Shown: one piece after another, positions 8,755-60,157 of the stretch
Position numbering within the stretch: position 1 is the stretch's first letter
How the letters are laid out: each line of letters opens with the position of its first letter
Assembly (NCBI GenBank): GCA_030698495.1
Contig: JAUYKA010000035.1
Coordinates: 8,778-72,777, forward strand
Direction of reading: 5' to 3'
Origin: a bacterium
GTDB lineage: Bacteria; Patescibacteriota; Andersenbacteria; UBA10190
Length of the DNA stretch: 64,000 bases
Made by a program: the position numbers and the translations under genes
The notes under the pieces: model-generated
What the model was told of the DNA's origin: nothing
The model's database searches: none
The model's input: only the letters and a program-made list of their open reading frames with translations

Positions 8755-8794
8755 GGAAATTCAATGGAAATTGGAAATTGATAATTGGAAATTG
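8755..8794. repeat. Tandem array of four GGAAAT(T)G octamer-type repeats filling the HIT-to-next-gene intergenic space
   Basis: ggaaattcaatggaaattggaaattgataattggaaattg is present. The same motif family recurs at about 21.73, 41.01-41.14 and 46.42-46.48 kb and as the GGGAAATTTCCC palindrome at 10615. Confidence 0.7.
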
Positions 8795-8799
8795 TCGCG

Positions 8800-9171
8800 C
8801 TAACAGCGCATCGGTCCCAGCCTCTCGCCCCCCAAAACATGGAAATGCACGTGCTTCACCACCTGCCCGGCATCATCTCCGACATTACTGATAATCCTAT
8901 ACCCGCCCGCGACTAGGCCTAAATCCCGCGCCACTTTTGTCGCGTCATGAATTAACTTGCCTATTAACAACTGATCATCATCAGTCATGTGTGCCAGTGA
9001 CACTATATGCCGCTTCGGTATTCCCAGCACATGCACCTTGGCTTTCGGAGAAATATCACGAAAAAACAACGTGTCCGTGCTCTCATATACCGCCTCCACC
9101 GGCGTTTCTCCTGTCACCATCCGGCAGAAAATACAATCCGGATCGTGCGTTTCATTCCTCCTAGCTGTCAT
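8800..9171 (-). CDS. HIT-family (histidine triad) nucleotide hydrolase
   Basis: The HVHFHVLGG histidine triad motif is present. The protein is 123 aa. Confidence 0.85.
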   Translation of the reverse strand: MTARRNETHDPDCIFCRMVTGETPVEAVYESTDTLFFRDISPKAKVHVLGIPKRHIVSLAHMTDDDQLLIGKLIHDATKVARDLGLVAGGYRIISNVGDDAGQVVKHVHFHVLGGERLGPMRC

Positions 9172-9208
9172 ACTCTCATTATAAAACTATCCTGCCCCGT
9201 CCACAAAC

Positions 9209-10573
9209 CTACCCCCCATTCTGTATATGCAACCGTCTTTGTAATTCTTCGATAAGTTTTTCCTGCGGTATTACTTCCTGCATGCCGCTCTCCATGTTCC
9301 GCAAAATAACCGTCTTATCAATAACCTCTTTGTGTCCGATAATCAGCGCCGACTGTACCCGCAACCTGTCCGCCGCTTTTAATTGCGCCTGCATGCCATC
9401 GCGATGGATACTCTCGGCAAAAGGAATACCGGCTACTTGTAAATCGCGCATGATACGCAAAGACTGGTTTTTAGCCAGTTCCCCCAGATGAGCAATAAAT
9501 AACTGCGGCGCGTCGGTCACGGTCAATTCCACTTCTTCCGCTTTCAATTGATCAATCACCCGTTCCACACCAATCGATACACCGGTACCCGGCGTATCGC
9601 GACCGCCCAACGCTCTCACCAAACCATCGTATCTGCCACCGCCGGCTAGAGTGTTTTGCGCCACGTCTTCGCGTTTCTTAGCTACAAATTCAAACACGGT
9701 GTGGGTATAGTAGTCCAAACCCCGAACCAGCGACGGAGCCACTTCGTATTTTACCTCTAAGGCATCCAGGCTCTTTAACACCGACTCAAAATATTGCTTT
9801 GATACATCCGTCAAGTGATCCAACAATCGCGGTGCCGTGTTGGCTAGCTGCTGACATTTTTCCTCTTTGCAATCCAGCACCCGCAACGGATTGGTCTTTA
9901 ATCTTTCCGCGCAAAGCCGACACATTTTTTTGCGATTACGCCGATAATGATCGCGCAAAACCTTAATATATTCCTTGCGCTCTCCCGGCCCCCCGATACT
10001 GTTGATTTTTAAAACATAATCCTCAATCCCCAGTTCTCCAAACATCAAATTAGTCACGTAAATCACCTGCGCGTCCGTTATGGGCGCAGACGAACCAAAC
10101 ACCTCCAAGCCTATTTGATGAAACTGCCGCCAGCGTCCGGCCTGGGGGCGATCATAACGAAAATACGGACCAACATAAAAAAGTTTGACCGGCTTCGGCC
10201 AACTGCGCATACCATGTTCAATATAAGCGCGCGCTACCGCCGAAGTTCCTTCGGGACGCAGCGCATACTGACTACTGCCACCGCGCCTCTTTAATTCAAA
10301 CAACTCCTTGCTGACAATATCCGTTTCCTCACCCACCCCTCGAGTAAACAGTATTGTTTCCTCAAACATCGGTGTATCAATTCTCTGCCAGCCAAATCCT
10401 CTGGCCACCGCCTTGGCCGTCTCCACTACATACTCCCAATACTTCTGCTCCTGCGGCAAAATGTCCTGCGTCCCTCGCGGTACCTGCACGGGAAAACCGG
10501 CCGGCGGTTTAACCCTGGCGCTAGCTTTATTCTCCTCCTCTTGCTGTGCCTTTGTCTTTTTATTGAACACCAT
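9209..10573 (-). CDS. hisS: Histidyl-tRNA synthetase
   Basis: Class II aaRS motifs are present, with HisRS-like blocks (RPEGTSAVARAY, GGGRYDGL). The protein is 454 aa. Confidence 0.9.
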   Translation of the reverse strand: MVFNKKTKAQQEEENKASARVKPPAGFPVQVPRGTQDILPQEQKYWEYVVETAKAVARGFGWQRIDTPMFEETILFTRGVGEETDIVSKELFELKRRGGSSQYALRPEGTSAVARAYIEHGMRSWPKPVKLFYVGPYFRYDRPQAGRWRQFHQIGLEVFGSSAPITDAQVIYVTNLMFGELGIEDYVLKINSIGGPGERKEYIKVLRDHYRRNRKKMCRLCAERLKTNPLRVLDCKEEKCQQLANTAPRLLDHLTDVSKQYFESVLKSLDALEVKYEVAPSLVRGLDYYTHTVFEFVAKKREDVAQNTLAGGGRYDGLVRALGGRDTPGTGVSIGVERVIDQLKAEEVELTVTDAPQLFIAHLGELAKNQSLRIMRDLQVAGIPFAESIHRDGMQAQLKAADRLRVQSALIIGHKEVIDKTVILRNMESGMQEVIPQEKLIEELQRRLHIQNGG

Positions 10574-10614
10574 AAGTCTTTTATTCTACTACAAAAATTA
10601 ATAAATGCAAGACC

Positions 10615-10626
10615 GGGAAATTTCCC
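10615..10626. promoter_or_regulatory. Perfect 12 bp palindrome GGGAAATTTCCC about 42 nt upstream of the hisS start. It is a candidate operator related to the GGAAATT repeat family.
   Basis: gaccGGGAAATTTCCCataa is seen directly in sequence. Its half-site equals the unit of the tandem arrays. Confidence 0.3.
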
Positions 10627-10701
10627 ATAAAAATCGGATAAGCCAGTCAAAACAAATCAACCATTGACGATAAAATAACCTTTACTAATAAGCTTATCCA
10701 G

Positions 10702-11310
10702 TTATTGCAAACTAAGGTATCCCGGCTTCATTATCTCAAAAACACTAAAACGATCAAAGGGATACGCCCTGATCCACGTTCTTCCCACAATTTCAAACCT
10801 CTTTAACGGCCCCCACGACCTTGAATCGGAACTAGCGGAACGATTGTCACCCATCACAAAATATTCATCAGACCCCAACCTAACATCTAGTTGTCCACCG
10901 GTCCTGGTACCTGCCGATAAATAGCCGCTCTCGTCTAGCACAACTCCCTGCTGATATTGATCGTTTTGTATTACCACTCGCCCGTCGTTTACCCTGACAG
11001 TATCTCCAGGCAAGCCGATAATTCTCTTGATAAAAAACTGGGAAGGATTATTTGGGTACCGGAAGACAATAACCTCGCCTCGTTGCGGCTCGCGCCAACG
11101 ATATGATAATTCATCGACCACCAGATACTCACCGTCTTCATAACTCGGCTCCATGCTCGCCCCCCTCACAAAAAACGGCTGCACTAAAAAATAACGAACG
11201 GGTATAATAATTACCACCGCGATTAAAAAAACTTTTATCAGCTCCCAAAAAAAACTTCCGATCGACATCAGCGCCGCCTTTGCTCCTACGGTATCGTTTG
11301 GCTCATCCAT
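10702..11310 (-). CDS. lepB: Signal peptidase I (S26 family)
   Basis: The start is taken at MDEPND, an internal Met of ORF 10702-11454. The SM box GASMEP is present after an N-terminal TM segment. Confidence 0.8.
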   Translation of the reverse strand: MDEPNDTVGAKAALMSIGSFFWELIKVFLIAVVIIIPVRYFLVQPFFVRGASMEPSYEDGEYLVVDELSYRWREPQRGEVIVFRYPNNPSQFFIKRIIGLPGDTVRVNDGRVVIQNDQYQQGVVLDESGYLSAGTRTGGQLDVRLGSDEYFVMGDNRSASSDSRSWGPLKRFEIVGRTWIRAYPFDRFSVFEIMKPGYLSLQ

Positions 11311-11508
11311 TTTTATTAACTTAATATTTATGCTTCTATTGTACGCCCCGCGCACAATGCGGCAAGGGTTGATAATTATCGAGTTGCCAATTTTGTTTAA
11401 ATCTTGTTCTCTATAGCCTAACCGAATATATGTTGTATACTCTACCCCAGTCACCGCAATTCCCTAACACGAAGATACACTGCGTTCTCGTTTTTGTCTT
11501 TAAAAATT

Positions 11509-13068
11509 ATGCCAAAAGACCAATCTAAATCAAGCGCGGAAAAACGTATTCTCTGGGAAATAAGAGACAAATATCAAATCCCCAAATCCCCGCGCCGCGG
11601 CAGTTTGACCGCTGCTGCCCGAAAACCCACTCTGTCTGGCCGACCGCAACTCGCCCACGTATCGCCTCCCCCCGCACCGCCGCGTCGAGACAGCGCCAGG
11701 AGCAACTCGCGCCTACCGTCTCGTCCCGCCAAAAAACATTGGCCGCGCCGTTTTTTCATTTTGCTTATAATTGTCATTCTTTTTTCCGGCGGGGTTTTCG
11801 GTTATAAAATTTTAGCCGCCGGCAACAAAATAAGCAGCGCCGAGCGATCTCTGATCGGACAGATCAAAGACCTTTTTCTCGTCGGAGACAAACAACTTAA
11901 AGGAGAAGCCGACGACCGCATCAACGTCATGCTGATTGCTATTGGCGGCGCCGGGCACTCCGGTGAAAACCTGGCCGACACTGTTATGATCGCCAGCCTA
12001 AGACCGTCCGATAATCGGGTATCTCTCCTTTCTATTCCTCGCGACCTTTATGTCCAAGTACCGGGCCAAGATTATTACACGAGAATTAATGCCGTTCACG
12101 CTCACGGTGAATCCCAGAAAGAAGGTCAAGGACCCGAGATGCTCCGCGGTCTGGTCGAAGAAGTTACCGGCTTACCTATTCACTATTACGGACGCGTTGA
12201 TTTCACCGCTTTTAAACAAATTGTTGATGCCGTCGGCGGCATCGACATTACCATTCCTAACGGTTTTTACGACTATTGGCACAAAATTGATTTTCGCGCC
12301 GGCACGGAAAAAATGGACGGGGAACGTGCCCTGGCTTACGTTCGCGCCCGCTACATTGAAGGTCCGGAAGGCGGCGACTTCAAAAGAACCACTCGACAGC
12401 AACAAGTCTTAATGGCTATTCAGGAAAAAGTTTTCTCCGTTAACACCGCTTTCGATTTCGCCGGGCTCAACAAAATTCTCAACTCGCTGTCGGATAACGT
12501 GCGCACCGACATGCAGTTATGGGAAATGAAAAGATTTTACGAAATAGCCCGCCAAGTCAAACATGACAACATCTCTTCAACCGTACTAACCACCGGTCCC
12601 ACAGCTCCCCTGGTCGGCGCTACTGAAATTCTTGGCGACACCCCCGCTTCCGTTCTTAAAACAAAAACCGGGGACTTCTCCGAAATCCAAAGCATTGCCG
12701 CCGGACTTTTTGACAATATTCCGAAGACTGTCACCGCCACCGCCCCACCCCAAGCCTCACCTTCAACCAGCCCCACCCCCCTAACCAAACCTACTATCGC
12801 CATCAGAAACGGCACCGCCATTACCGGCCTAGCCAAACAAACCGGCGATGACTTGAAAGACAAAGGTTACACCGTTACCGGTATCGGCAATGCTGCGAGT
12901 AAAGATACCTCCCAAACAACAGTTTATGTTATCAACGACGACTACGAAGACCAGGCCCAAGACATTGCGGACACCCTGCACGCCCAACTTTCCCATAACT
13001 TGCCGGATAGCGAACAATCCACCGACGCTCAAGTCTTAATTATTCTTGGTACCGATACCGGCGCCTAA
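11509..13068 (+). CDS. LytR-CpsA-Psr (LCP) family cell-wall polymer transferase with an N-terminal TM anchor
   Basis: The ATG at 11509 is taken as the start. The ORF-track start at 11494 is a TTG. A basic cytoplasmic N-terminus, a TM helix and LCP-domain blocks (NVMLIAIGG...DTVMIASL, YVRARY) are present. The 3' end overlaps pth by 33 nt. Confidence 0.8.
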   Translation: MPKDQSKSSAEKRILWEIRDKYQIPKSPRRGSLTAAARKPTLSGRPQLAHVSPPPAPPRRDSARSNSRLPSRPAKKHWPRRFFILLIIVILFSGGVFGYKILAAGNKISSAERSLIGQIKDLFLVGDKQLKGEADDRINVMLIAIGGAGHSGENLADTVMIASLRPSDNRVSLLSIPRDLYVQVPGQDYYTRINAVHAHGESQKEGQGPEMLRGLVEEVTGLPIHYYGRVDFTAFKQIVDAVGGIDITIPNGFYDYWHKIDFRAGTEKMDGERALAYVRARYIEGPEGGDFKRTTRQQQVLMAIQEKVFSVNTAFDFAGLNKILNSLSDNVRTDMQLWEMKRFYEIARQVKHDNISSTVLTTGPTAPLVGATEILGDTPASVLKTKTGDFSEIQSIAAGLFDNIPKTVTATAPPQASPSTSPTPLTKPTIAIRNGTAITGLAKQTGDDLKDKGYTVTGIGNAASKDTSQTTVYVINDDYEDQAQDIADTLHAQLSHNLPDSEQSTDAQVLIILGTDTGA

Positions 13069-13617
13069 CTCACCCAGAACAGCAACTTTAGTCAAACTTG
13101 CCATCGCCGTCAGTTTTTGTTTACTCATCGTTTCCCGCTCTGCCGCCGAAAATTTTTGCAGCACATATTCTTCAGCCTCCATATTCTGCGGCGGACGTCC
13201 TATCCCCAAGCGCAAACGACGAACATCCTTGCTCCCCAACGCTGTCTGCACCGACCGTACCCCATTGTGCCCCTTAGCGCTGCCTCGACCTAAACGAATC
13301 TCGCCCAACGGCAGCTCCATATCATCATGCACTAATAATATCTCCCCCTTATCTAATCGCTCGTATCGGATAAACTCGCCCACCGCCTCACCGGAATTAT
13401 TCATCATCGTTAAAGGAAACATAACCGTTATCTCGCAATCACCAAACACCAACTTGGCGCTGGCCCATTTCCCGCTCGCGTCTGTTTTCCATCCCGACTT
13501 CACCGCCGATTCGTTTTCTCCTACCCAGTCACGCAGTGTTGCAATGCCAAAATTATGACGCGTGTTTGTAAAACGCGTGCCAATATTACCCAACCCGACA
13601 AACAACATCTTTTTCAT
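13036..13617 (-). CDS. pth: Peptidyl-tRNA hydrolase
   Basis: The N-terminus MKKMLFVGLGNIGTRFTNTRHNFG is the classic Pth signature. The protein is 193 aa. Confidence 0.9.
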   Translation of the reverse strand: MKKMLFVGLGNIGTRFTNTRHNFGIATLRDWVGENESAVKSGWKTDASGKWASAKLVFGDCEITVMFPLTMMNNSGEAVGEFIRYERLDKGEILLVHDDMELPLGEIRLGRGSAKGHNGVRSVQTALGSKDVRRLRLGIGRPPQNMEAEEYVLQKFSAAERETMSKQKLTAMASLTKVAVLGELGAGIGTKNN

Positions 13618-21729: not shown

Positions 21730-21772
21730 GGAAAATTGAAGAATTGATTGGAAATTGGAAATTGAAAATTTG
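21730..21772. repeat. GGAAA(A)TTG-type tandem repeats (ggaaaattg, gaagaattg, ggaaatt, ggaaattg, gaaaatttg) between convergent topA and parB
   Basis: Seen directly in sequence. It is the same motif family as 8755-8794. Confidence 0.65.
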
Positions 21773-24138: not shown

Positions 24139-24225
24139 GCCGGGATGGCGGAATTGGTTTACGCGCACGACTCAAAATCGTGTGAGCTTACGCTCGTGTG
24201 GGTTCGAGTCCCACTCCCGGCACCA
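24139..24225 (+). tRNA. tRNA-Leu (anticodon CAA), type II with a long variable arm and an encoded CCA
   Basis: The acceptor stem GCCGGGA/TCCCGGC is present. The anticodon loop is cuCAAaa. The T-arm GGTTCGAGTCC is present. A possible TTGGCA-17-TACAGT promoter lies just upstream. Confidence 0.9.
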
Positions 24226-24230
24226 CAAAT

Positions 24231-24872
24231 ATGATCAAAGCAATTTTATTTGACGTCGACGGAGTATTAATAGACTCCTTTGAAGCAAATTTAAGGTTTT
24301 TTCAAGACTTAATGAATAAAGTTGGTTACCCTCCGCCAACCAGAGATCAATTTCATGATATTTTTGCCATGAACCTTGTTGATGCTATCAAAACTCTTAC
24401 TAAATCAAATTCCGAAGAAGAAATTCAGCGCATATGGCATACAGGAAAAAACAGAGAAGTTAATTATCATACAGAACTAATTAACATTCCCAATGAATTA
24501 GAAATTGCGCTCAAACAACTAAGCAAAGATTTTTTATTGGGTATCGTTACCAGCCGCGTCCGAGAAAATATCTACGAAGCCCCTTCTTTAAAAGAACTTA
24601 AACATTATTTCAAAATTGCAGTCGGCTATCAGGATACAAACAACCATAAACCGGATCCTGACCCGTTATTATTTGCTGCTAAAAAGTTAAAAATCAAACC
24701 GGAGGAATGCATATACATAGGCGACACTTCAAACGATCTGCAGGCAGGCCATGCTGCAAACATGAAGGTTATAATCTATCCCAATAATAAAAACCTTCCC
24801 GCCGACGCTCACGCCGCATCCTTTACTGAATTACCAACACTGATATCGTCTTTAAACAAAGAAACGCGATAA
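24231..24872 (+). CDS. HAD-superfamily hydrolase (beta-phosphoglucomutase/phosphatase-like)
   Basis: Motif I FDVDGVL is present. The ATG at 24231 is in frame within ORF-track entry 24198-24872. The track start overlaps the tRNA. Confidence 0.75.
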   Translation: MIKAILFDVDGVLIDSFEANLRFFQDLMNKVGYPPPTRDQFHDIFAMNLVDAIKTLTKSNSEEEIQRIWHTGKNREVNYHTELINIPNELEIALKQLSKDFLLGIVTSRVRENIYEAPSLKELKHYFKIAVGYQDTNNHKPDPDPLLFAAKKLKIKPEECIYIGDTSNDLQAGHAANMKVIIYPNNKNLPADAHAASFTELPTLISSLNKETR

Positions 24873-41013: not shown

Positions 41014-41137
41014 TTAATTTTCAATTTTCAATTTCCATTGAATTATCAATGACGCAATTTTCAAACACTAAAACTTTTCATCGTTGTGCTTGGAAATTGA
41101 TAATTGATTATTATATGGAAATTGGAAATTGGAAATT
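41014..41137. repeat. GGAAATTG-family repeat arrays in both orientations. These are aattttcaattttcaatttcc at 41014-41036 and ggaaattg at 41092, then three tandem ggaaatt units at 41117-41137 that overlap the glyQS stop codon.
   Basis: Seen directly in sequence. It fills the glyQS-M16 peptidase intergenic region. ORF-track entry 41104-41328 over it is judged spurious. Confidence 0.7.
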
Positions 41138-42518
41138 ATATCGACAGTTTATCTGTTAAATATCCACCAACCTTGTCTATATTAATCCTCTCCTGCTCCA
41201 TACTATCCCTCTCTCTCACTGTCACCTGCTTATCTTCCAAGGAGTCAAAATCAACCGTTACGCAATACGGCGTGCCAATTTCATCCTGGCGCCGATACCG
41301 CTTGCCGATTGATTGCGTCTCATCGTAATCAACGCGCAGACTTTTTGCCAATTCATCAGCCAACGGCTCGGCCAGCTTTATAAGTTCCGGCTTCTTCGAC
41401 AAAGGCAGTACTGCCACCTGATACGGCGCCAAATTTGGTTTCAGCTTTAGCACTACCCGCTTATCTCCCTTAACTTCTTCCTCGTAGTAAGCATCCATCA
41501 ACACAAATAATACCAGCCGCGACAAACCGAATGTCGGTTCAATCACATGCGGATAAAATTTTTCTCCCGTTTTTGTATCCGTCACCTGCAGATCCTGACC
41601 CGTAGCCTGCGCGTGATTCTTCAAATCGTAATCGGCACGATAAGCCAGCCCGAACATTTCTTTACTGCCCCAAGACGACGCATACTCAATATCCACCGTC
41701 CGTCTGGAATAATGCGCCCGTTCTTCAGTCGCCTGCTCCCGCAAACGCAAGTTTTCTTTTTTGATCCCCACTTCCTCCGTCACCCATTTTTGCATCTCCC
41801 CAAGCCACATCTCAAAATACTTCTCCCAATCAGCTTCTCTCACAAAATACTCAAACTCCATCAAATCGAACTCCAGCGTGCGGAAAATAAAATTACCCGG
41901 CGTGATTTCATTGCGAAACGCCTTGCCGACTTGCGCTATGCCAAACGGTAAGGATTTCCGCATTGAATCCATAATCAATTTAAAATCTACAAACATCGAT
42001 TGCGCCAGCTCCCCCCGCAAATAAACAATCTGTTTATTACTTTCAACCGTTCCCAACGAAGTCTCAAACAGTAAGTTGAATTGACGCGCTTCGGTAAAAT
42101 CATGTTTACCACAATTCGGACAGACAATATTGTTATCAGCGCTAATTAAAACGGACATTTCCTCTATCGTCATCGCGTCCGTATTCCTATCAGGCAATAT
42201 GTTCTTTATCAGATCGTCCGCCCGCCAGCGATTATGGCAGGACTTACAATCCACCATCGGGTCGTTAAAATTATCAACGTGATGCGAAGCTTTCCACACT
42301 TCCGGATTCATTAAAATCGCCGCGTCCAAACCAACCATATCCCGCCGGCTCTCCACAAAATACTTCCACCAGGCATCCCGCAAATTATTTTTTAACTGCA
42401 CTCCCAACGGACCGAAATCCCACGAATTGCGCAACCCGCCGTAAATCGCCGACCCCGGATACACAAACCCGCGTCTTTTGCATAACTCAACTATTTTTTC
42501 CAGAGAAACTTTTTCCAT
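41136..42518 (-). CDS. glyQS: Glycyl-tRNA synthetase, single-chain (alpha2) type
   Basis: The N-terminus VELCKRRGFVYPGSAIYGG is present. Class II motifs are present. The protein is 460 aa. Confidence 0.9.
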   Translation of the reverse strand: MEKVSLEKIVELCKRRGFVYPGSAIYGGLRNSWDFGPLGVQLKNNLRDAWWKYFVESRRDMVGLDAAILMNPEVWKASHHVDNFNDPMVDCKSCHNRWRADDLIKNILPDRNTDAMTIEEMSVLISADNNIVCPNCGKHDFTEARQFNLLFETSLGTVESNKQIVYLRGELAQSMFVDFKLIMDSMRKSLPFGIAQVGKAFRNEITPGNFIFRTLEFDLMEFEYFVREADWEKYFEMWLGEMQKWVTEEVGIKKENLRLREQATEERAHYSRRTVDIEYASSWGSKEMFGLAYRADYDLKNHAQATGQDLQVTDTKTGEKFYPHVIEPTFGLSRLVLFVLMDAYYEEEVKGDKRVVLKLKPNLAPYQVAVLPLSKKPELIKLAEPLADELAKSLRVDYDETQSIGKRYRRQDEIGTPYCVTVDFDSLEDKQVTVRERDSMEQERINIDKVGGYLTDKLSI

Positions 42519-42586: not shown

Positions 42587-43012
42587 TCACCCCACCCCGC
42601 GCAGCCGCAACCTAATTACCTTAGTTCTGTCATTACGCGCCGCCCTCACTTGCTTCTCTGCTCGCAGCTGCTCCCGATGCAGCTTCTCCATTACCTTCTT
42701 CTGTGCCGCTTGAGGGTTGTTTTTTTGCTCATAAGACATTATTCCAAACTCCCGGTAAGTGCGATCCCGATCGCGCCTAAACCCCTGTTTTATCTCCCTC
42801 TCCCGCCGTTTAAAATCCGAGCGCACCCTCCCCAGCTCGCCCACATACCAATCCGACACCTGCCTCCTCTCCTTCCGCCACTGCTTCATGTACTCGCTCG
42901 TCCCCAAAAAACTCTGGATAAAATTTCCCTTATCCGGCGGCCGTACCGGCTGACCTCCCCAATCGTTTGGATTACTGAAACCTCCCGGATTTTGCTCCAT
43001 AAAACTCCCCAT
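42587..43012 (-). CDS. Hypothetical highly charged Arg/Lys/Glu-rich protein (141 aa)
   Basis: The frame is open. The sequence is low-complexity basic/acidic with no motif seen. Confidence 0.4.
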   Translation of the reverse strand: MGSFMEQNPGGFSNPNDWGGQPVRPPDKGNFIQSFLGTSEYMKQWRKERRQVSDWYVGELGRVRSDFKRREREIKQGFRRDRDRTYREFGIMSYEQKNNPQAAQKKVMEKLHREQLRAEKQVRAARNDRTKVIRLRLRGVG

Positions 43013-43111: not shown

Positions 43112-44269
43112 ATGTTTCACGGCATCGAACAAGCCTACGCCGGCGCTATGGTGACTGCCGCGCGTACCGCCCAGCAAACTCTGTTCGACACCCCCATTTG
43201 CGAGGCCATCCGGCCTTCCACGGTTTGGAACAAAGGTGACACGGAAAGCTTCGACACCATTCCGGAAAACGCGATTGTCGGAGTCTTGCGCCGTTTTGAC
43301 CCATATGCCGTCGTCGTCACCGAGGAACGTGGCGCTGCTAACCCCTTTCTAAGCGACGACCCGACCCAAAGCAAGGGAGCACGTACTTTCTGTGTCTGCG
43401 ACCCTTTCGACCGATCAAACCAGGCCAAACAATTTCTTACCCCTCTAGCCGCCAAAGGCGGAAAGATCGTTGACATCCTGCGCAACCCGGAAACCATCGC
43501 CAACTGGGAAAAAGACTTCGGTTCTCCCGCCTCCATCACCGGCTTCACTACAGGCATCACCTGCGTCCGTCGCGGCTTGCCTATTGCCAGCGTTATCTTG
43601 AATTACCTTACGGAAGAAGTAACCCTGGCCTGCGCCGCCGGCATCTTCCACGCCAAGCTGCCTGAAGATCTCTCGCATGATATCAACCTTGAATATATCA
43701 TGCAGCAGGGAAAACGCCTGGTCTTCCCTCAACCCAACCACTTTACCGTCCGCAACATCGTGTCATACATCGGTAAACCGGAGCGTGGCTACCCCAAGAA
43801 CTTCTCCAGTATCCGTCTGGTGCAGGATCACGAACTAGATCACCGCCTTTACTACAATCTGCCCGGCGGCCCCTCGCGTATTCTGTATCTCTCAAATCTG
43901 CAACCGGCCGAAGCCCCCATTGGCGCCGTTGTTGCCAACGGCGAGAAGATCGGAGAATGGACTTCGTGGCTTACCTTCATCCGCTTTGCTCTACGCGCAG
44001 ACGATCACAGTTCTCCGGCCTTACGCATCTTCGAAGCCTCACAAAAAGAAACGTTGTCCATAGACGGCATATTGATGATGCCTACGCCCGACTACAGCAT
44101 CTTCGTCAACCGCAACCCCGATTCCAACCGCGTCTATATCAGCGCCCAAAAGCTGCAGGATTTCACCAACCCCAGCAAATATCGCGCCACAATGATTGTG
44201 TTCCCCGCCAGCAGTCGTTGGGCCTTAAGTCTGGTGGAGCAGTACGGCTACCGCGAGATCGTCTTTTAG
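43112..44269 (+). CDS. Hypothetical 385 aa protein with weak resemblance to IMPase/FBPase/CysQ-superfamily phosphatases
   Basis: An AAGGAG Shine-Dalgarno lies 8 nt upstream. VVVTEERG and FCVCDPFDRS loosely match the EE and DPxDGT motifs, with Gly replaced by Arg, so the assignment is tentative. GC content is elevated and codons are C/G-ending. Confidence 0.45.
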   Translation: MFHGIEQAYAGAMVTAARTAQQTLFDTPICEAIRPSTVWNKGDTESFDTIPENAIVGVLRRFDPYAVVVTEERGAANPFLSDDPTQSKGARTFCVCDPFDRSNQAKQFLTPLAAKGGKIVDILRNPETIANWEKDFGSPASITGFTTGITCVRRGLPIASVILNYLTEEVTLACAAGIFHAKLPEDLSHDINLEYIMQQGKRLVFPQPNHFTVRNIVSYIGKPERGYPKNFSSIRLVQDHELDHRLYYNLPGGPSRILYLSNLQPAEAPIGAVVANGEKIGEWTSWLTFIRFALRADDHSSPALRIFEASQKETLSIDGILMMPTPDYSIFVNRNPDSNRVYISAQKLQDFTNPSKYRATMIVFPASSRWALSLVEQYGYREIVF

Positions 44270-44322
44270 CTCGACTAACCCGGCACCATTACCAGACTCG
44301 GCTAAACGATTCAACAACCCAA

Positions 44323-44351
44323 CCCCCCGCAAACCCAAGCGGGGGGTTTTC
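44323..44351 (+). terminator. Intrinsic terminator
   Basis: ccccccgc-aaacccaa-gcgggggg is followed by tttt. Confidence 0.7.
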
Positions 44352-44353
44352 AA

Positions 44354-44381
44354 TTGACATGGTAAATACGACTGCTAATAT
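44354..44381 (+). promoter_or_regulatory. sigma70-type promoter TTGACA-16-TAATAT for the purM-like gene
   Basis: The -35 lies at 44354-44359 and the -10 at 44376-44381. The 5'UTR is about 65 nt with an AAAGGA Shine-Dalgarno. Confidence 0.55.
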
Positions 44382-44450
44382 AAAAAACCAGGCGGGATCA
44401 AACCAACTGGCTGTTCTCTTCCCAATCTTTTTCTCGAAAGGACTGCTGTC

Positions 44451-45491
44451 ATGTCCCAAGCTTCAGCGTACGCGGCTAGCGGTGTTGACATCGACAAGGG
44501 CGCGCTTTTTGTCAAAATGGTCAAAGAACGAATCGCCAAAGCCTGGCCCGGCAGAGAAGACGCCATCGGCGGCTTCGCCGGCCTCCTACAACTAGCCACA
44601 CCAACCAGCATCCTCAAAACTTGCTGTGACGGCTCCGGCACCATCGCTATTCTCGGCGCGCTCACCGGCCGGTTTTCCCTGATCGGCCACAACGCCGCCG
44701 CCATGTCACTGGTTGACGCCTATGTCGCCAGCACCCACCCCGTGGGCCTGAATGACGTAATCGGCACCGGCAGTCTTGATCCGGAACGGCACATCGGGAT
44801 TATTGACGGCATTATTAATGCCTGTCAGTATTCCGAAGATTGCTTCATCGTCGGCGGCGAAACGGCTGAACAGCCCGGTATGTACAAGTATGACTGGATA
44901 GTGGACATCAACACTTTCGTTGTCGGCATACCCGACCCAGATATCGTTACCGGCAACGTTCAACCAGGACAACCCGTTTACGGCTGGCCTTCTTATGGTC
45001 CTGCCTCCAACGGTTTCTCGTTGATCCGCAACGTGTTCAACCTTAACACCGATCCGGAATCAGCCAGAGACACATTGAATCAACTTCCTCTCGATGGTGC
45101 TTGTTCTCTGGCCGATGCCCTGCTTGTACCAGCGCCAGTGTACATCAATCAGATCGAAGTGCAGCGCCGAACCGGCATCCGCTTTGCCGCCCATGCTCAC
45201 ATCACCGGCGGCGGATTGGTGGACAACATTCCGCGTGTACTGCCTGAAAACTGCAAAGTGGTTCTCGACCGCTCCGCCTGGCTGCGTCCGTCAATCTTCA
45301 AAGCTATCCAGGAAACCGGTCACATTACGCCTGCTGAAATGGATCGCGTCTTCAACCAGGGCATCATGGTCGCCTCCATTATTGACGGCAATGAGATGCC
45401 CGACAGCTGCAACGCCACGTGCATCGGCACTGTCGAACAGCGCCAAGGCAACGAACCCCAGGTTCAGTTCACCGGTTCCTTCAAACAGTAG
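44451..45491 (+). CDS. PurM-superfamily protein (AIR synthetase-like), divergent
   Basis: YAASGVDIDKG...GGFAGL...DGSGT matches the PurM N-domain. GGETAEQPGMY and HITGGGLVDNIPRVLPEN match the PurM C-domain. ThiL, HypE and SelD hallmarks are absent. Confidence 0.75.
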   Translation: MSQASAYAASGVDIDKGALFVKMVKERIAKAWPGREDAIGGFAGLLQLATPTSILKTCCDGSGTIAILGALTGRFSLIGHNAAAMSLVDAYVASTHPVGLNDVIGTGSLDPERHIGIIDGIINACQYSEDCFIVGGETAEQPGMYKYDWIVDINTFVVGIPDPDIVTGNVQPGQPVYGWPSYGPASNGFSLIRNVFNLNTDPESARDTLNQLPLDGACSLADALLVPAPVYINQIEVQRRTGIRFAAHAHITGGGLVDNIPRVLPENCKVVLDRSAWLRPSIFKAIQETGHITPAEMDRVFNQGIMVASIIDGNEMPDSCNATCIGTVEQRQGNEPQVQFTGSFKQ

Positions 45492-45505
45492 CCCCCCGAG
45501 CAACC

Positions 45506-45546
45506 CCGCGCGAGACCTCAAAAAGTCTCCGCGGGTTTTTCTTTTT
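45506..45546 (+). terminator. Intrinsic terminator
   Basis: ccgcgcgagac-ctcaaaaa-gtctccgcgg is followed by gtttttcttttt. Confidence 0.7.
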
Positions 45547-45571
45547 AAAAAACTCTAACCACCAGTCGTGC

Positions 45572-45600
45572 TTGACTTAACTGAATATTTCATCTATTAT
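45572..45600 (+). promoter_or_regulatory. sigma70-type promoter TTGACT-17-TATTAT for the NUDIX gene
   Basis: The -35 lies at 45572-45577 and the -10 at 45595-45600. An AAGAGG Shine-Dalgarno lies before ATG 45648. Confidence 0.55.
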
Positions 45601-45647
45601 TATCCACTCCTCTAAGACCGTACATTCTCAAACCAAAGAGGCTAATC

Positions 45648-46163
45648 ATGGCAATCATCAAACACACTTGGTGCGGTAAATTCGTTTCAGTTCGCGTAGA
45701 AGAACGTGGCTCCCAAACATTGGAAATAGTCCACGTCCGCAATGGTGTCACTGTTGTTCCTATTTTCCCAGACGGTCGCCTGTGTCTCATCCGCGAACGC
45801 AGCTGGAAGACCCAACAGATGGTAACAAAGCCGGTTACCGGATTTATCGACGACAATGAAAACCCCTGGGCAGCGGCGCGACGCGAGCTTGCCGAAGAAA
45901 TCGGCTTTGAAGCCGGCGAGTGGGAACTGGCTCTAACGTCAACCAAAAACGACGTGATTGAGCACCAGCAATTCTGTTTCGTATGCCACGACCTGACTGC
46001 CACATCCCCCCATCCGGAACCGGGGGAGTATATCGAGAAATTGGTTAAACTCACGCCGGCCGAAGTCCAACAACGCACTCTTGGCCTTGAGTTTGGCAGC
46101 AATATCACCGCGTTCTTTCTCCTTCGCCTAGCCACACAGCTTCTAGAAAATTCTGGCAAATAG
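45648..46163 (+). CDS. NUDIX hydrolase (ADP-ribose pyrophosphatase-like)
   Basis: The Nudix box GFIDDNENPWAAARRELAEEIGF fits Gx5Ex7REUxEExGU. Confidence 0.85.
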   Translation: MAIIKHTWCGKFVSVRVEERGSQTLEIVHVRNGVTVVPIFPDGRLCLIRERSWKTQQMVTKPVTGFIDDNENPWAAARRELAEEIGFEAGEWELALTSTKNDVIEHQQFCFVCHDLTATSPHPEPGEYIEKLVKLTPAEVQQRTLGLEFGSNITAFFLLRLATQLLENSGK

Positions 46164-46175
46164 CCAGTACTTTAC

Positions 46176-46202
46176 ACACCCGGACCCCACCGGGTGTTTT
46201 CA
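46176..46202 (+). terminator. Intrinsic terminator downstream of the NUDIX gene
   Basis: acacccgg-acccc-accgggtgt is followed by tttc. Confidence 0.6.
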
Positions 46203-46415
46203 TTACCTACACACCAATCTATTTTTTTTCTCCGTACCTGCTTAACAATTCCTCACGCGACATAGCGGCTGTCCAAACCGGCCGCGTTTCTTTCGCGAAA
46301 AGCTGCTGGCGCATCTCTTCGGAAATTGCGCCTTCCCAACATTCTCATTCAAACCAGACTTTGGCACTCCTTCCGCACTCATTGTTTTTTGTCATTTTAA
46401 AATTGAGACTTAAAT

Positions 46416-46476
46416 GGAAATTGCCTTGCCGGCCATAGCTCGCGAGCGACGGCTGGGAAATTGAGCCTTGAAAATT
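46416..46476. repeat. GGAAATTG-family repeats (ggaaattg at 46416 and 46456, gaaaatt at 46470) between convergent NUDIX and protease genes
   Basis: Seen in sequence. The last unit abuts the protease stop at 46478. Confidence 0.55.
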
Positions 46477-46477
46477 A

Positions 46478-47539
46478 TTATTCCCATCCTTGCCGCACCA
46501 CCCGCCAAACTACTTTTTCCTGCTGAACCTGCATCGGGCCCTGCGGCGTCTGCTGTTGCACCGGCACTTGCTGACGGCGAAACTCCACATGCAAATCAAA
46601 GTGCTGTGATTGCTTCTCACTTTCTACATAAGCAATCGTGTAGTCTTTTTCTCCTTGACTCATACCCGCTCCCAGCTCCATTTCCTGGTTCCACTGCTCG
46701 CCTATTTTCATCTCCTCTTTAAAGCTCTCATAAATTTCCGTCATCACATCAGCCAAGCCGCTCTTGGCATACATCACGCTGTTTAATCCCAGCGACTCTC
46801 GCGCTTCCTTGCGCCCGATAAAGTACTGGTGACTGTACAGCTTTTCCGTAAAGTAACCAACCACTTTGTCCACTTCCGCCTCTGCCATCGGCTCTTTATG
46901 ACTAAGCAGTAACTGACGAGCCAGCAATCGAATTAAATTATGAATACGGTTAACATTCCCCAGCGCCAGCGGATGAATCTGCGGATTAGCTTTTCCGAAT
47001 TGGCTGAAAATTTGCTCCAAACTGGCATCTGATGAAATTCCAAACTTATTCTTGGCCAAATCAAAATAGGCGACTACGTCTTCCACGGAAATCGGTATGC
47101 GCCCCTGCGGACTTCCCGGCTGTGGCGGATTAAACACGTTCGCCGTGGACGGATCGATAGGGGACAACTCCGACAAGTCACTCATCACTATTTCGTCCGC
47201 TCCCAGCGCAATCATCGTCGCCGCGCTGTGCGCTTTATAGGGCACCAACACTGCCAACTTATCACAGTATTCCCGAATCATAGACACCAGCCGCCACGGC
47301 ACCATGGTATCCCCGCCCGTGCTGTACAAAACCAAATCTATTTTTTCCTGTTTCCCCATCGCGCGCAGCTGTCCGCTAAAAATCGGAATTATATCCATGC
47401 CGATTTTAGCGCCAATCGGTCCCGGCCGGTCGCTGGTGAAATAAGCTAAAACACTTGATCCCCGCTCCTGGCCGATTTTTTTCAGTAATTCTTTTCTATC
47501 CATATTAAAACTATACTCCCCTGCCCATACAAAAATCAA
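46478..47539 (-). CDS. SDH-family (ClpP/crotonase-fold, Peptidase_S49-related) serine proteinase
   Basis: The N-terminal region GSSVLAYFTSDRPG...LYSTGGDTMVPWRLVSMIREY...HSAATMIALGADEIVM matches the serine dehydrogenase proteinase family layout. Confidence 0.65.
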   Translation of the reverse strand: MIFVWAGEYSFNMDRKELLKKIGQERGSSVLAYFTSDRPGPIGAKIGMDIIPIFSGQLRAMGKQEKIDLVLYSTGGDTMVPWRLVSMIREYCDKLAVLVPYKAHSAATMIALGADEIVMSDLSELSPIDPSTANVFNPPQPGSPQGRIPISVEDVVAYFDLAKNKFGISSDASLEQIFSQFGKANPQIHPLALGNVNRIHNLIRLLARQLLLSHKEPMAEAEVDKVVGYFTEKLYSHQYFIGRKEARESLGLNSVMYAKSGLADVMTEIYESFKEEMKIGEQWNQEMELGAGMSQGEKDYTIAYVESEKQSQHFDLHVEFRRQQVPVQQQTPQGPMQVQQEKVVWRVVRQGWE

Positions 47540-47633: not shown

Positions 47634-48017
47634 TCAGTAATTGCGGCACTCGCGGGCCAGCACTTCCGCCCGTTCGTCTTCACCCAAGCCAGGCAACTGA
47701 TCATGCAGCCGGCACATCAGCGCGTGCAGCCTGGCACGCTTCTTCTGCCCAATCGTGTCGAGATTCAGAGCATCAGCCACTCGGTGAGCGTCGGTGAAGA
47801 TCTCCTGCATCAGACGCTCACTATACTCTCTCATCAGCCGACGCCTGACATACTCCAGGAACCTTTTCACCGAGTTGAACTCGCTGCCAGCGGAGAGCTG
47901 CTTCCTCATCCTCTTCTGCTGCTTACGCTTCTCGCTCTCCGCTTGTAGCTGCTCCCTGTCCCGCTGGCCGGCCGAAATCAGGCCTGCCACGAACAACTGA
48001 TCAGATAGAGTGCCCAC
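47634..48017 (-). CDS. Hypothetical helical protein (127 aa), GC-rich at about 58%
   Basis: The GTG start at 48015-48017 is preceded by an AAAGGAGG Shine-Dalgarno 5 nt upstream. The protein is charged and helical with no motif seen. Confidence 0.55.
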   Translation of the reverse strand: MGTLSDQLFVAGLISAGQRDREQLQAESEKRKQQKRMRKQLSAGSEFNSVKRFLEYVRRRLMREYSERLMQEIFTDAHRVADALNLDTIGQKKRARLHALMCRLHDQLPGLGEDERAEVLARECRNY

Positions 48018-59776: not shown

Positions 59777-60157
59777 CTACTCCGTCTTTACTTTCGGCCA
59801 CTGCGGCAAATCAGATGGCATTGGCAGCGGTTTTCTGGGCGAATCCGGCAGAAACTTGCGATACAAAAGCTTTACCAACTCACAAGCGCCGCACCGCCAA
59901 CACAATCTATAGACACCGATGTACACCCACCTGTCATCGTCCGGATGTCCTGTTTTGAGCCACTTCTGATACGTCAACCCGCTGCCGCAACAACCGCACC
60001 GACCGCGCCAATCGCTGATTACCCGCCACAACCAAAATAGCCAATATCCTCCCAACAGCGCCGCCAACAAGAAGAAAAACGACAAGTGAATCGCCGCCAA
60101 AAAGACCAGAGTCAACCCCACTGCCGCCGCCAGATGAATCAAAAACCAGCGTCCCAT
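59777..60157 (-). CDS. Two-TM membrane protein with a cytoplasmic Cys-rich domain (putative zinc ribbon)
   Basis: GRCGCCGSG and CWRCGAC clusters follow two hydrophobic helices. It lies immediately upstream of the P-type ATPase gene. Confidence 0.5.
   Translation of the reverse strand: MGRWFLIHLAAAVGLTLVFLAAIHLSFFFLLAALLGGYWLFWLWRVISDWRGRCGCCGSGLTYQKWLKTGHPDDDRWVYIGVYRLCWRCGACELVKLLYRKFLPDSPRKPLPMPSDLPQWPKVKTE

Follow-up and report, generated by a model that had tools for sequence, protein, structure and literature searches.

The stretch analysed here, hereafter the window, comprises 64,000 nucleotides (nt) of the forward strand of contig JAUYKA010000035.1 (assembly GCA_030698495.1, positions 8,778 to 72,777), assigned to the Andersenbacteria in the candidate phyla radiation (CPR, Patescibacteria). 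We studied three consecutive genes of its + strand, encoding a protein of 385 amino acids (aa) that belongs to no named family, a PurM-like protein of 346 aa and a NUDIX hydrolase of 171 aa. In a preliminary description of the window these genes had been presented as a GC-richer module, possibly acquired horizontally and devoted to the salvage or modification of nucleotides or small molecules. The three open reading frames (ORFs) were confirmed at exactly the coordinates given there, as three separate transcription units, with a hairpin after each and a promoter site before the second and the third. The features of the locus are as follows:

43112..44269, + strand: gene for the 385-aa protein
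44321..44353, + strand: intrinsic terminator of the 385-aa gene, with a G+C stem of 10 bp, CCCCCCGC.../...GCGGGGGG, and then TTTT (-21.5 kcal/mol)
44354..44381, + strand: sigma-70-like promoter, TTGACA-16-TAATAT plus the TG of an extended -10, 70 nt 5' of the PurM start (10/12 consensus)
44451..45491, + strand: gene for the 346-aa PurM of a CPR-specific clade (Pfam AIRS and AIRS_C, TIGR00878 match)
45505..45546, + strand: intrinsic terminator of the PurM gene, with a stem of roughly 11 bp and then TTTTTCTTTTT (-19.9 kcal/mol)
45572..45600, + strand: sigma-70-like promoter, TTGACT-17-TATTAT, 5' of the NUDIX gene (10/12 consensus)
45648..46163, + strand: gene for the 171-aa NUDIX hydrolase (PF00293, Nudix box GFIDDNENPWAAARRELAEEIGF)
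46176..46202, + strand: intrinsic terminator of the NUDIX gene, 8 pairs of which 6 are G-C (-14.6 kcal/mol)

A Shine-Dalgarno-like sequence precedes all three genes (AAGGAG, GAAAGGA and AAAGAGG), and each is followed by a terminator hairpin with a T-run, as had been described; the energies listed were obtained by RNA folding. The hairpin of the 385-aa gene was not listed by the consensus scan, probably owing to its short T-run; that of the NUDIX gene is located in the convergent spacer shared with the gene of an SDH-type protease (46478-47539, - strand). In a promoter scan of 42.5-47 kb, the sites at 44354 and 45572 were the two top + strand matches. The total number of promoter-like sites in this region was unremarkable (4 vs. 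2.6 ± 1.7 expected); a site matching at least 10 of 12 consensus positions arose in only 1.2% of the shuffles of the 181-nt spacer before the PurM gene and in 1.7% of those of the 156-nt spacer before the NUDIX gene. No promoter of similar quality was found 5' of the 385-aa gene. The sequence signals thus support three monocistronic units. An Rfam scan of 42.0-48.2 kb revealed no riboswitch and no other RNA. The three co-oriented genes run against the prevailing - strand orientation and are flanked by - strand genes. On one side these are GlyRS (41136-42518) and an ORF of 141 aa, on the other the SDH-type ClpP-like protease, an ORF of 127 aa and TGT.

The window also encodes FtsZ/FtsA, ParAB, Mfd, TopA, DprA, RecO, TGT, six aminoacyl-tRNA synthetases and large surface proteins, with little metabolism. 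These neighbours are typical CPR housekeeping genes, and the DNA is that of a Patescibacteria (CPR) chromosome. Identical proteins are found in NCBI records of metagenome-assembled genomes labelled "bacterium" or Candidatus Andersenbacteria, and also in two Logan contigs, where the gene order is the same.

The conservation of the three-gene arrangement was assessed on 80 loci with a gene of the 385-aa family, obtained by a family-alignment scan with one genome per species (GTDB). They span the CPR classes Andersen-, Doudna-, Uhr-, Falkow-, Taylor-, Staskawicz-, Nomura- and Sung-bacteria and the cultured Minisyncoccus archaeiphilus, and a few are on large non-CPR contigs labelled Ignavibacteriales, Bacteroidetes or Planctomycetes. 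When the PurM and NUDIX proteins of the window were compared with these 80 loci by tblastn, no homologue of either was found within 6 kb. A gene of the 385-aa family was likewise absent from the nine other loci of the PurM clade described below and from 80 loci of canonical PurM, which served as negative set and were taken among the matches listed in the contig scan (PurMs 32-39% identical); a single NUDIX gene, weakly similar and 9 kb away, was detected near PurM in these two sets. Altogether, the adjacency of the three genes did not recur outside the same organism in 173 loci, L001 and L002, which come from that organism, being the only ones of 175 to show it. Clustering all-vs-all of 846 flanking ORFs gave a generic ABC ATPase as the largest neighbour family (9/80 loci), and in a Pfam scan of 148 immediate neighbours no family had more than four members, the leading ones having no link to purines or NUDIX proteins. 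The family gene typically stands alone, with spacers mostly longer than 50 nt and neighbours on either strand. Since neither the adjacency recurs nor any neighbour is enriched, the reading as a module is unsupported; the three genes do not form a conserved module and are neighbours by chance.

In view of these data, we consider it rather probable that the locus holds three independent genes lying side by side: a member of an unnamed phosphatase-fold family, a CPR-form PurM and an ADP-sugar-hydrolase-like NUDIX protein. They would be functionally independent monocistronic genes placed together by chance on the lagging (+) strand of an Andersenbacteria-like chromosome. The PurM and NUDIX proteins are additional members of known families, and the 385-aa protein adds a new variant, covered by no model, to the superfamily of inositol monophosphatase (IMPase) and fructose-1,6-bisphosphatase (FBPase).

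The 346-aa protein contains the full-length AIRS (PF00586, 33.1 bits) and AIRS_C (PF02769, 59.8 bits) domains, both above their cut-offs. Its sole NCBIfam hit was purM (TIGR00878), with 211 bits (E 2.5e-62) over 313 of the 332 profile positions, below the equivalog cut-off of 236.35. Compared with Escherichia coli PurM (PDB 1CLI) it gave an E of 3.6e-45, and its mean identity to canonical PurM is about 36%. The homology search returned about 50 proteins at 300-463 bits (43-62% identity) and then canonical PurMs at about 200 bits; many of these close homologues are from Andersenbacteria and are named "AIR synthase-related protein" by NCBI, as is the 346-aa protein itself. In the phylogeny against canonical PurM they form a monophyletic CPR clade, split from the canonical sample in 100/100 neighbour-joining bootstraps.

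Residues were compared between 27 members of this clade and 14 canonical PurMs (alignment A2). Of the PurM superfamily motifs (DX4GAXP-type, GGETAE and HITGGG), D89, G135-G136-E137 and H250-I-T-G-G-G255 are invariant in both groups, and the protein of the window retains each of the 31 columns invariant across them. The clade differs from canonical PurM, at positions without variation in the 14 sequences, in that the His of GPHSNG is replaced by Ala or Gly (27/27 members) and the Lys of DGVGTK by Val, Ile, Met or Ala (16/27, including the protein of the window), and further in that the Asn of VND is mostly Val, the Gly of GIGM is Met and D-x-AG has become N-x-NT.

With respect to genomic context, the protein family scans detected no pur or thi gene in the 64-kb window other than the gene at 44451-45491, in agreement with its description as a lone PurM. 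Three of the nine other clade members examined are, however, part of pur clusters. P0150 (locus L092) abuts purD and has purN 2 kb upstream, P0162 (L174) follows purN-purL and P0167 (L085) follows purL; all three share the His, Asn and Gly changes, and P0167 also that of Lys (Val). As the pur-clustered members carry the same replacements, these substitutions are compatible with a role in purine synthesis. Because relatives in the clade are located in pur clusters, the 346-aa protein is most likely a true AIR synthetase, and we prefer the reading that its partners are scattered in the genome. It would then still catalyse the ATP-dependent cyclisation of formylglycinamidine ribonucleotide (FGAM) to aminoimidazole ribonucleotide (AIR) in de novo purine synthesis. 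The proposal that the enzyme serves something other than this pathway found no support, given the arrangements purN..purD-purM, purN-purL-purM and purL-purM around these relatives.

Two observations on these contigs are worth adding. A block encoding HIT, HisRS, signal peptidase (S26), LytR and Pth (window 8800-13617) is syntenic with positions 762-5790 of L092 (29-49% identity); in L092 it runs on into YqeY, purN, purD and purM, whereas in the window it is followed by a pilin-like gene, a TSP3-repeat protein, YbeY, DAGK, FtsA and FtsZ. In addition, the large PurL of L085 (5948-9811), which is on a CPR-sized contig (820-921 kb), is about 70% identical to PurL of Thermodesulfobacteriota/Syntrophaceae, which suggests that some CPR lineages may have acquired purL laterally. 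The 120 best hits listed in the PurL homology search were all Thermodesulfobacteriota-like PurLs of about 70% identity and are uninformative with regard to the contigs with a lone PurM.

Several points weigh against an AIR synthetase role. One is the set of changes in the clade, such as those of the His and Lys mentioned above, at positions where the 14 canonical PurMs do not vary. The Andersenbacteria-like subclade to which the protein of the window belongs is lone within ±10 kb (window, L083, L084, L090, L091 and L175), as is the member in L173. Moreover, CPR bacteria often lack nucleotide synthesis, even if some lineages have it (PMC7304191, PMC4736985). The lone PurM of this subclade might no longer be an AIR synthetase, being either a relic or an enzyme that has taken up a different ATP-dependent reaction, in a genome devoid of the rest of the purine pathway. 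In favour of this are the lone contexts, 7 out of 10 in the clade and including the whole subclade; the presence in the window of the Pth-LytR-S26-HisRS-HIT block but not of purN, purD or purL; the hydrophobic residue in place of the Lys of DGVGTK in every lone member examined; and the lack of nucleotide synthesis in many CPR (PMC7304191). We nevertheless judge it unlikely. The retention of all 31 universal PurM columns and an identity of 52-62% within the subclade indicate purifying selection, the change of His to Ala or Gly and most of the other clade-specific changes are common to the pur-clustered members, with P0167 also having Val for Lys, and CPR genomes commonly have the genes of a pathway scattered; these contexts cover about 20 kb of each genome.

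Of the three proteins, the 385-aa one alone is unusual. It gave no Pfam hit at E ≤ 0.1, PF00459 included, and no PADLOC match, and its best NCBIfam hit, an archaeal FBPase/IMPase model aligned to residues 40-102, reached E 0.011 and 14.8 bits against a cut-off of 264. A word-indexed search retrieved 318 relatives, nearly all of 380-395 aa and all called hypothetical. A full scan of 1.84 billion cluster representatives with a hidden Markov model (HMM) of the family found only 239 matches at E ≤ 1e-3, corresponding to about 240 clusters when grouped at 50% identity, and reached no canonical IMPase. Since the hits are so few and include no canonical IMPase, the family is, as judged from these searches, small and closed. 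Neither a viral contig scan nor a fold search of BFVD revealed viral relatives, the sole BFVD hit being a giant-virus FBPase (E 2e-4), and nothing specific was found in the literature on this family or on purine synthesis in Andersenbacteria.

The family alignment contains 39 invariant positions. The conserved residues include D43, D48, E52, E71-E72, D97-P98-x-D100-(R)-S102, G252-G253-P254-x-R256, N276-G-E-K279, E282, W283 and R358; among them, conservation of E71, E72, D97, D100 and S102 is complete or reaches at least 90% in 51 close and 34 distant members. At the DPxD motif the family consensus is DPTDRS, and the protein of the window has C-D-P-F-D-R-S. The PROSITE signature of IMPases contains ...[LIVM]-D-P-[LIVM]-D-[SG]-[ST]..., to which the 385-aa protein does not conform.

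An AlphaFold2 model built on the family alignment had a predicted local distance difference test (pLDDT) of 91.4 and a predicted template modelling (pTM) score of 0.92, and it shows the fold of the IMPase superfamily, a two-domain alpha-beta-alpha-beta-alpha sugar-phosphatase. The top matches of a Foldseek search against PDB were histidinol-phosphate phosphatase (HisN), IMPases, SuhB and CysQ (E about 1e-9, target TM about 0.7, 10-14% identity). Some 230-255 of the 385 residues superpose on them and the rest are insertions, the family having about 130 residues more than the superfamily, roughly at 103-145 and 295-350. FBPases of class I/II, SBPase and GlpX were no closer to the protein than other branches. 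The family HMM aligns "gDTlglD..pE...ITEErG" with "TnvD..aE...ITEEsG" of SuhB (E 0.03), and an hhalign comparison of the family profile with a single canonical IMPase, from L090, gave no match. The candidate for the third metal ligand, by position in the sequence and the model, is the invariant E278 of NGEK, at the place of the WD-Asp of IMPases. Compared with IMPase, SuhB, CysQ, Hal2 and FBPase (PF00459), the family thus shows no significant sequence match, has DP(T/F)DRS where the superfamily has DP(I/L)DG(T/S), and would have the Glu of NGEK instead of the third Asp. The protein had been described beforehand as only loosely IMPase-like, with DPFDRS for DPxDGT, and as a possible new family; the marginal NCBIfam hit and the fold bear out the first point, and the second agrees with the fact that no Pfam, NCBIfam or PADLOC model covers the family.

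Given the fold and the conserved acidic residues, the model places the family as a deep branch of the Li+-sensitive phosphatase superfamily, equidistant from the others and keeping the acidic metal ligands. The equidistance from all characterised branches means that no specificity can be transferred. The protein is probably a phosphomonoesterase that depends on Mg2+ and has a phosphorylated sugar or nucleotide, possibly a bisphosphate, as substrate; the EE pair, DPxD(R)S and the invariant Glu of NGEK would bind the catalytic Mg2+ ions, as in the superfamily. The many invariant basic and aromatic residues (Arg, Lys, Tyr) suggest that the substrate may be polyanionic, perhaps bisphosphorylated. 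Some features are unfavourable to this assignment: E278 is taken as equivalent to the third metal Asp by its position (strand end, then helix) and its invariance, DP(T/F)DRS departs from the IMPase signature, and distant relatives are fused to helix-turn-helix (HTH) or receiver domains, which could mean a sensory role instead of catalysis.

These distant relatives (P0319-P0375, alignment A3, loci L086-L089) belong to non-CPR bacteria. The weaker HMM hits include about 25 proteins of 430-470 aa whose N-terminal 60-80 residues are an XRE-type HTH_3, and two longer relatives with a weak receiver domain. At 23-29% identity, E71, D97, D100, G253-P254, R256, E278 and R358 are invariant in them, and conservation is 90% or higher at K41, D43, D48, E52, E72, P98, S102, G277 and E282. 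Two HTH-fused examples were in ordinary chromosomal settings, with no conserved partner. In PADLOC the HTH-fused relatives match through their HTH only, and none of the three proteins of the locus matched a defence system. The HTH-fused relatives look like enzyme-regulator or sensor fusions. They are the main reason for considering that the 385-aa protein might not be an enzyme at all but a ligand-sensing or regulatory module with a metal- or phosphate-binding pocket; SuhB, of the same superfamily, also plays a part other than catalysis in the rRNA antitermination complex (PDB 6tqn, one of the structures matched in the fold search). We regard this as quite unlikely, as the stand-alone CPR proteins have no DNA-binding domain and the acidic metal ligands are all retained without change down to 23% identity, which fits catalysis. 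Fusion to an HTH does not necessarily mean loss of activity either, as illustrated by the enzyme-repressor fusions BirA, NadR and PutA.

A more specific proposal starts from the enzymatic role. The 385-aa protein could found a new branch of the superfamily whose substrate is outside those of known branches, either a pentose or sugar bisphosphate (sedoheptulose-1,7-, fructose-1,6- or ribose-1,5-bisphosphate) or a nucleotide bisphosphate. It would supply the nucleotide metabolism of reduced CPR genomes with ribose-5-phosphate or phosphoribosyl pyrophosphate (PRPP), and the HTH-fused relatives of other bacteria would be enzyme-repressors sensing the same metabolite. This is speculative, and we believe it improbable in this form; if true, the adjacency to PurM in the window and the rpe-purN/purL setting of locus L081, described below, would be meaningful rather than coincidental.

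A further observation on the family concerns a kinase-like P-loop (GxxxxGKS) ORF, about 210 aa long and unmatched in Pfam, which adjoins the family gene in 5/80 loci (L021, 7213-7851; L025, 2643-3305; L026, 5210-5863; L054, 1763-2572; L057, 5263-5880), one of them on a 4.5-Mb Bacteroidetes chromosome.

The 171-aa protein has a complete Nudix box, G-FIDDN-E-NPWAAAR-RE-L-A-EE-I-G-F (pattern GX5EX7REUXEEXGU), and matches PF00293 with 49.7 bits vs. a cut-off of 21.1. Its fold and full box are those of NudF, NudE, Ndx4 and NUDT5, the best matches being NudF (PDB 5c7q, E 1.4e-10), the ADPRase of Thermus thermophilus (1v8i) and NudE. It lacks, however, the Pro-containing motif that follows the Nudix box in NudF: the segment HPVIGYSNE of 5c7q is not conserved and the protein reads TKNDVIEHQQ there. 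Its scores are also far below the family cut-offs, with 44.9 bits for NudE (NF008736) vs. 169, outside that subfamily. Given these scores and the missing motif, its specificity cannot be assigned to a subfamily. On sequence grounds the protein is classified as a generic NUDIX pyrophosphohydrolase of the ADP-sugar-hydrolase-like group. Its likeness to ADP-ribose pyrophosphatase, noted from the outset, is thus confirmed to the extent that its closest relatives are hydrolases of ADP-sugars and other ADP-compounds.

As regards joint function, it had been proposed that the three proteins, one phosphatase-like, one a lone PurM-fold enzyme and one a NUDIX hydrolase, cooperate in the salvage or modification of nucleotides or small molecules, distinct from purine synthesis. 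The three genes are adjacent, co-oriented and opposed to the prevailing - strand, and each of the three chemistries can bear on the metabolism of ribose-phosphates and nucleotides; NUDIX hydrolases of the ADP-ribose type release AMP and ribose-5-phosphate. The family also has members near pur genes. In L081 (1290-12055), which carries the most divergent member, purD, rpiB, a receiver protein, rpe, the family gene, a Formyl_trans_N-like (purN-like) gene and purL follow each other on one strand, and in L018 (8-7155) the family gene is 2.5 kb downstream of purL. This is a hint of a loose thematic link of the family to purine or pentose-phosphate metabolism, and it runs counter to full independence of the three genes. 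However, with the window included, such proximity occurs in 3/81 loci, which is about the level expected from random placement in genomes with a purine pathway of roughly 10 pur genes. Furthermore, strong separate terminators and own promoter sites set the genes apart, and the adjacency was found in none of the 80 family loci, the nine other PurM-clade loci or the 80 canonical PurM loci listed, with no enriched neighbour. A common pathway for the three proteins is therefore not borne out and is, in our opinion, very unlikely.

The base composition of the locus was compared with that of the window, whose G+C content is 48.9%. The 385-aa gene (GC 0.552, GC at third codon positions [GC3] 0.662) and the PurM gene (0.563 and 0.645) are above the mean of the other 49 ORFs (GC 0.495 ± 0.042, GC3 0.534 ± 0.068), with z between 1.4 and 1.9 (1.6-1.9 for GC3) and ranks 2-4 of 51, while the NUDIX gene is average (0.520 and 0.550). 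Unrelated genes with equal or higher GC3 are found at 47634-48017 (0.74), 59777-60157 (0.65) and 42587-43012 (0.64). The excess of codons ending in C at the locus (third-position C [C3] 0.48, third-position G [G3] 0.17) is due to a G/C disparity between strands over the whole window. Its + strand has 30.5% C and 18.4% G, and the GC skew (-0.249) is present in every 1-kb bin whatever the gene orientation. Every + strand gene has C3 above G3 (0.34 and 0.15) and every - strand gene G3 above C3 (0.40 and 0.14). A similar strand disparity is known from some Microgenomates genomes (PMC7143001). The distance in codon usage to the other + strand genes was 0.12-0.14 at the locus, compared with 0.09-0.10 for mfd, topA, dprA and UDP-glucose dehydrogenase and with 0.16-0.21 for the AT-rich genes 310-2445 and 24198-24872. 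Annotation and a repeat search revealed no tRNA, integrase, mobility gene or flanking direct repeat around the locus. The label "GC-richer" consequently holds mildly for two of the three genes and, with the NUDIX gene average and the C-ending codons a strand effect, is not real evidence for a foreign origin; horizontal acquisition found no confirmation in composition, repeats, tRNA or mobility genes. A recent acquisition of the 43-46 kb segment as a genomic island is highly improbable, for although the GC3 of two genes ranks 2nd and 4th of 51, their orientation is opposite to that of the flanking genes and related Andersenbacteria differ in synteny (with PurM between VanW/zf and YdjM/TsaD), the deviations are modest, shared with small unrelated neighbours and absent from the NUDIX gene, codon usage is close to that of other + strand genes with the strand-specific C3 > G3 bias fully adopted, no integrase, tRNA or flanking direct repeat was found, and the nearest homologues of the 385-aa protein and of PurM come from Andersenbacteria.

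Other features of the window were recorded during this analysis. The true compositional outliers are the AT-rich genes 310-2445 and 24139-24872 (GC 0.38-0.43), one of which codes for a HAD hydrolase in an ORF that overlaps or abuts tRNA-Leu(CAA) at 24139-24225. The heptamer GGAAATT occurs in runs and scattered copies, mostly in or near intergenic DNA (8766-8794, 21750-21764, 41015-41140 and 46321-46477); the exact sequence GGAAATTG has 14 copies in the window vs. 4.6 ± 2.1 expected, and inverted copies bracket the stretch from 41015-41050 to 46402-46477. Possibly the heptamer serves this genome as a regulatory or repeat element. The family match of the SDH-type ClpP-fold serine protease encoded at 46478-47539 (- strand) is limited to its N-terminal 135 residues, approximately; the protein is weakly similar to phage head-maturation proteases and has a C-terminal extension of about 220 residues of unassigned nature.

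The three-gene "module" is therefore no discovery in itself, and what is worth recording are the 385-aa family and the CPR PurM clade. The former is scattered over many CPR classes and a few other phyla, with neither a database model nor an assignable specificity, and identifying its substrate would fill a blank in CPR metabolism and add a branch to a pharmacologically well-known superfamily. As for the latter, annotation pipelines label the clade "AIR synthase-related", and its members are probably real PurM, which matters for scoring the nucleotide autonomy of CPR bacteria.

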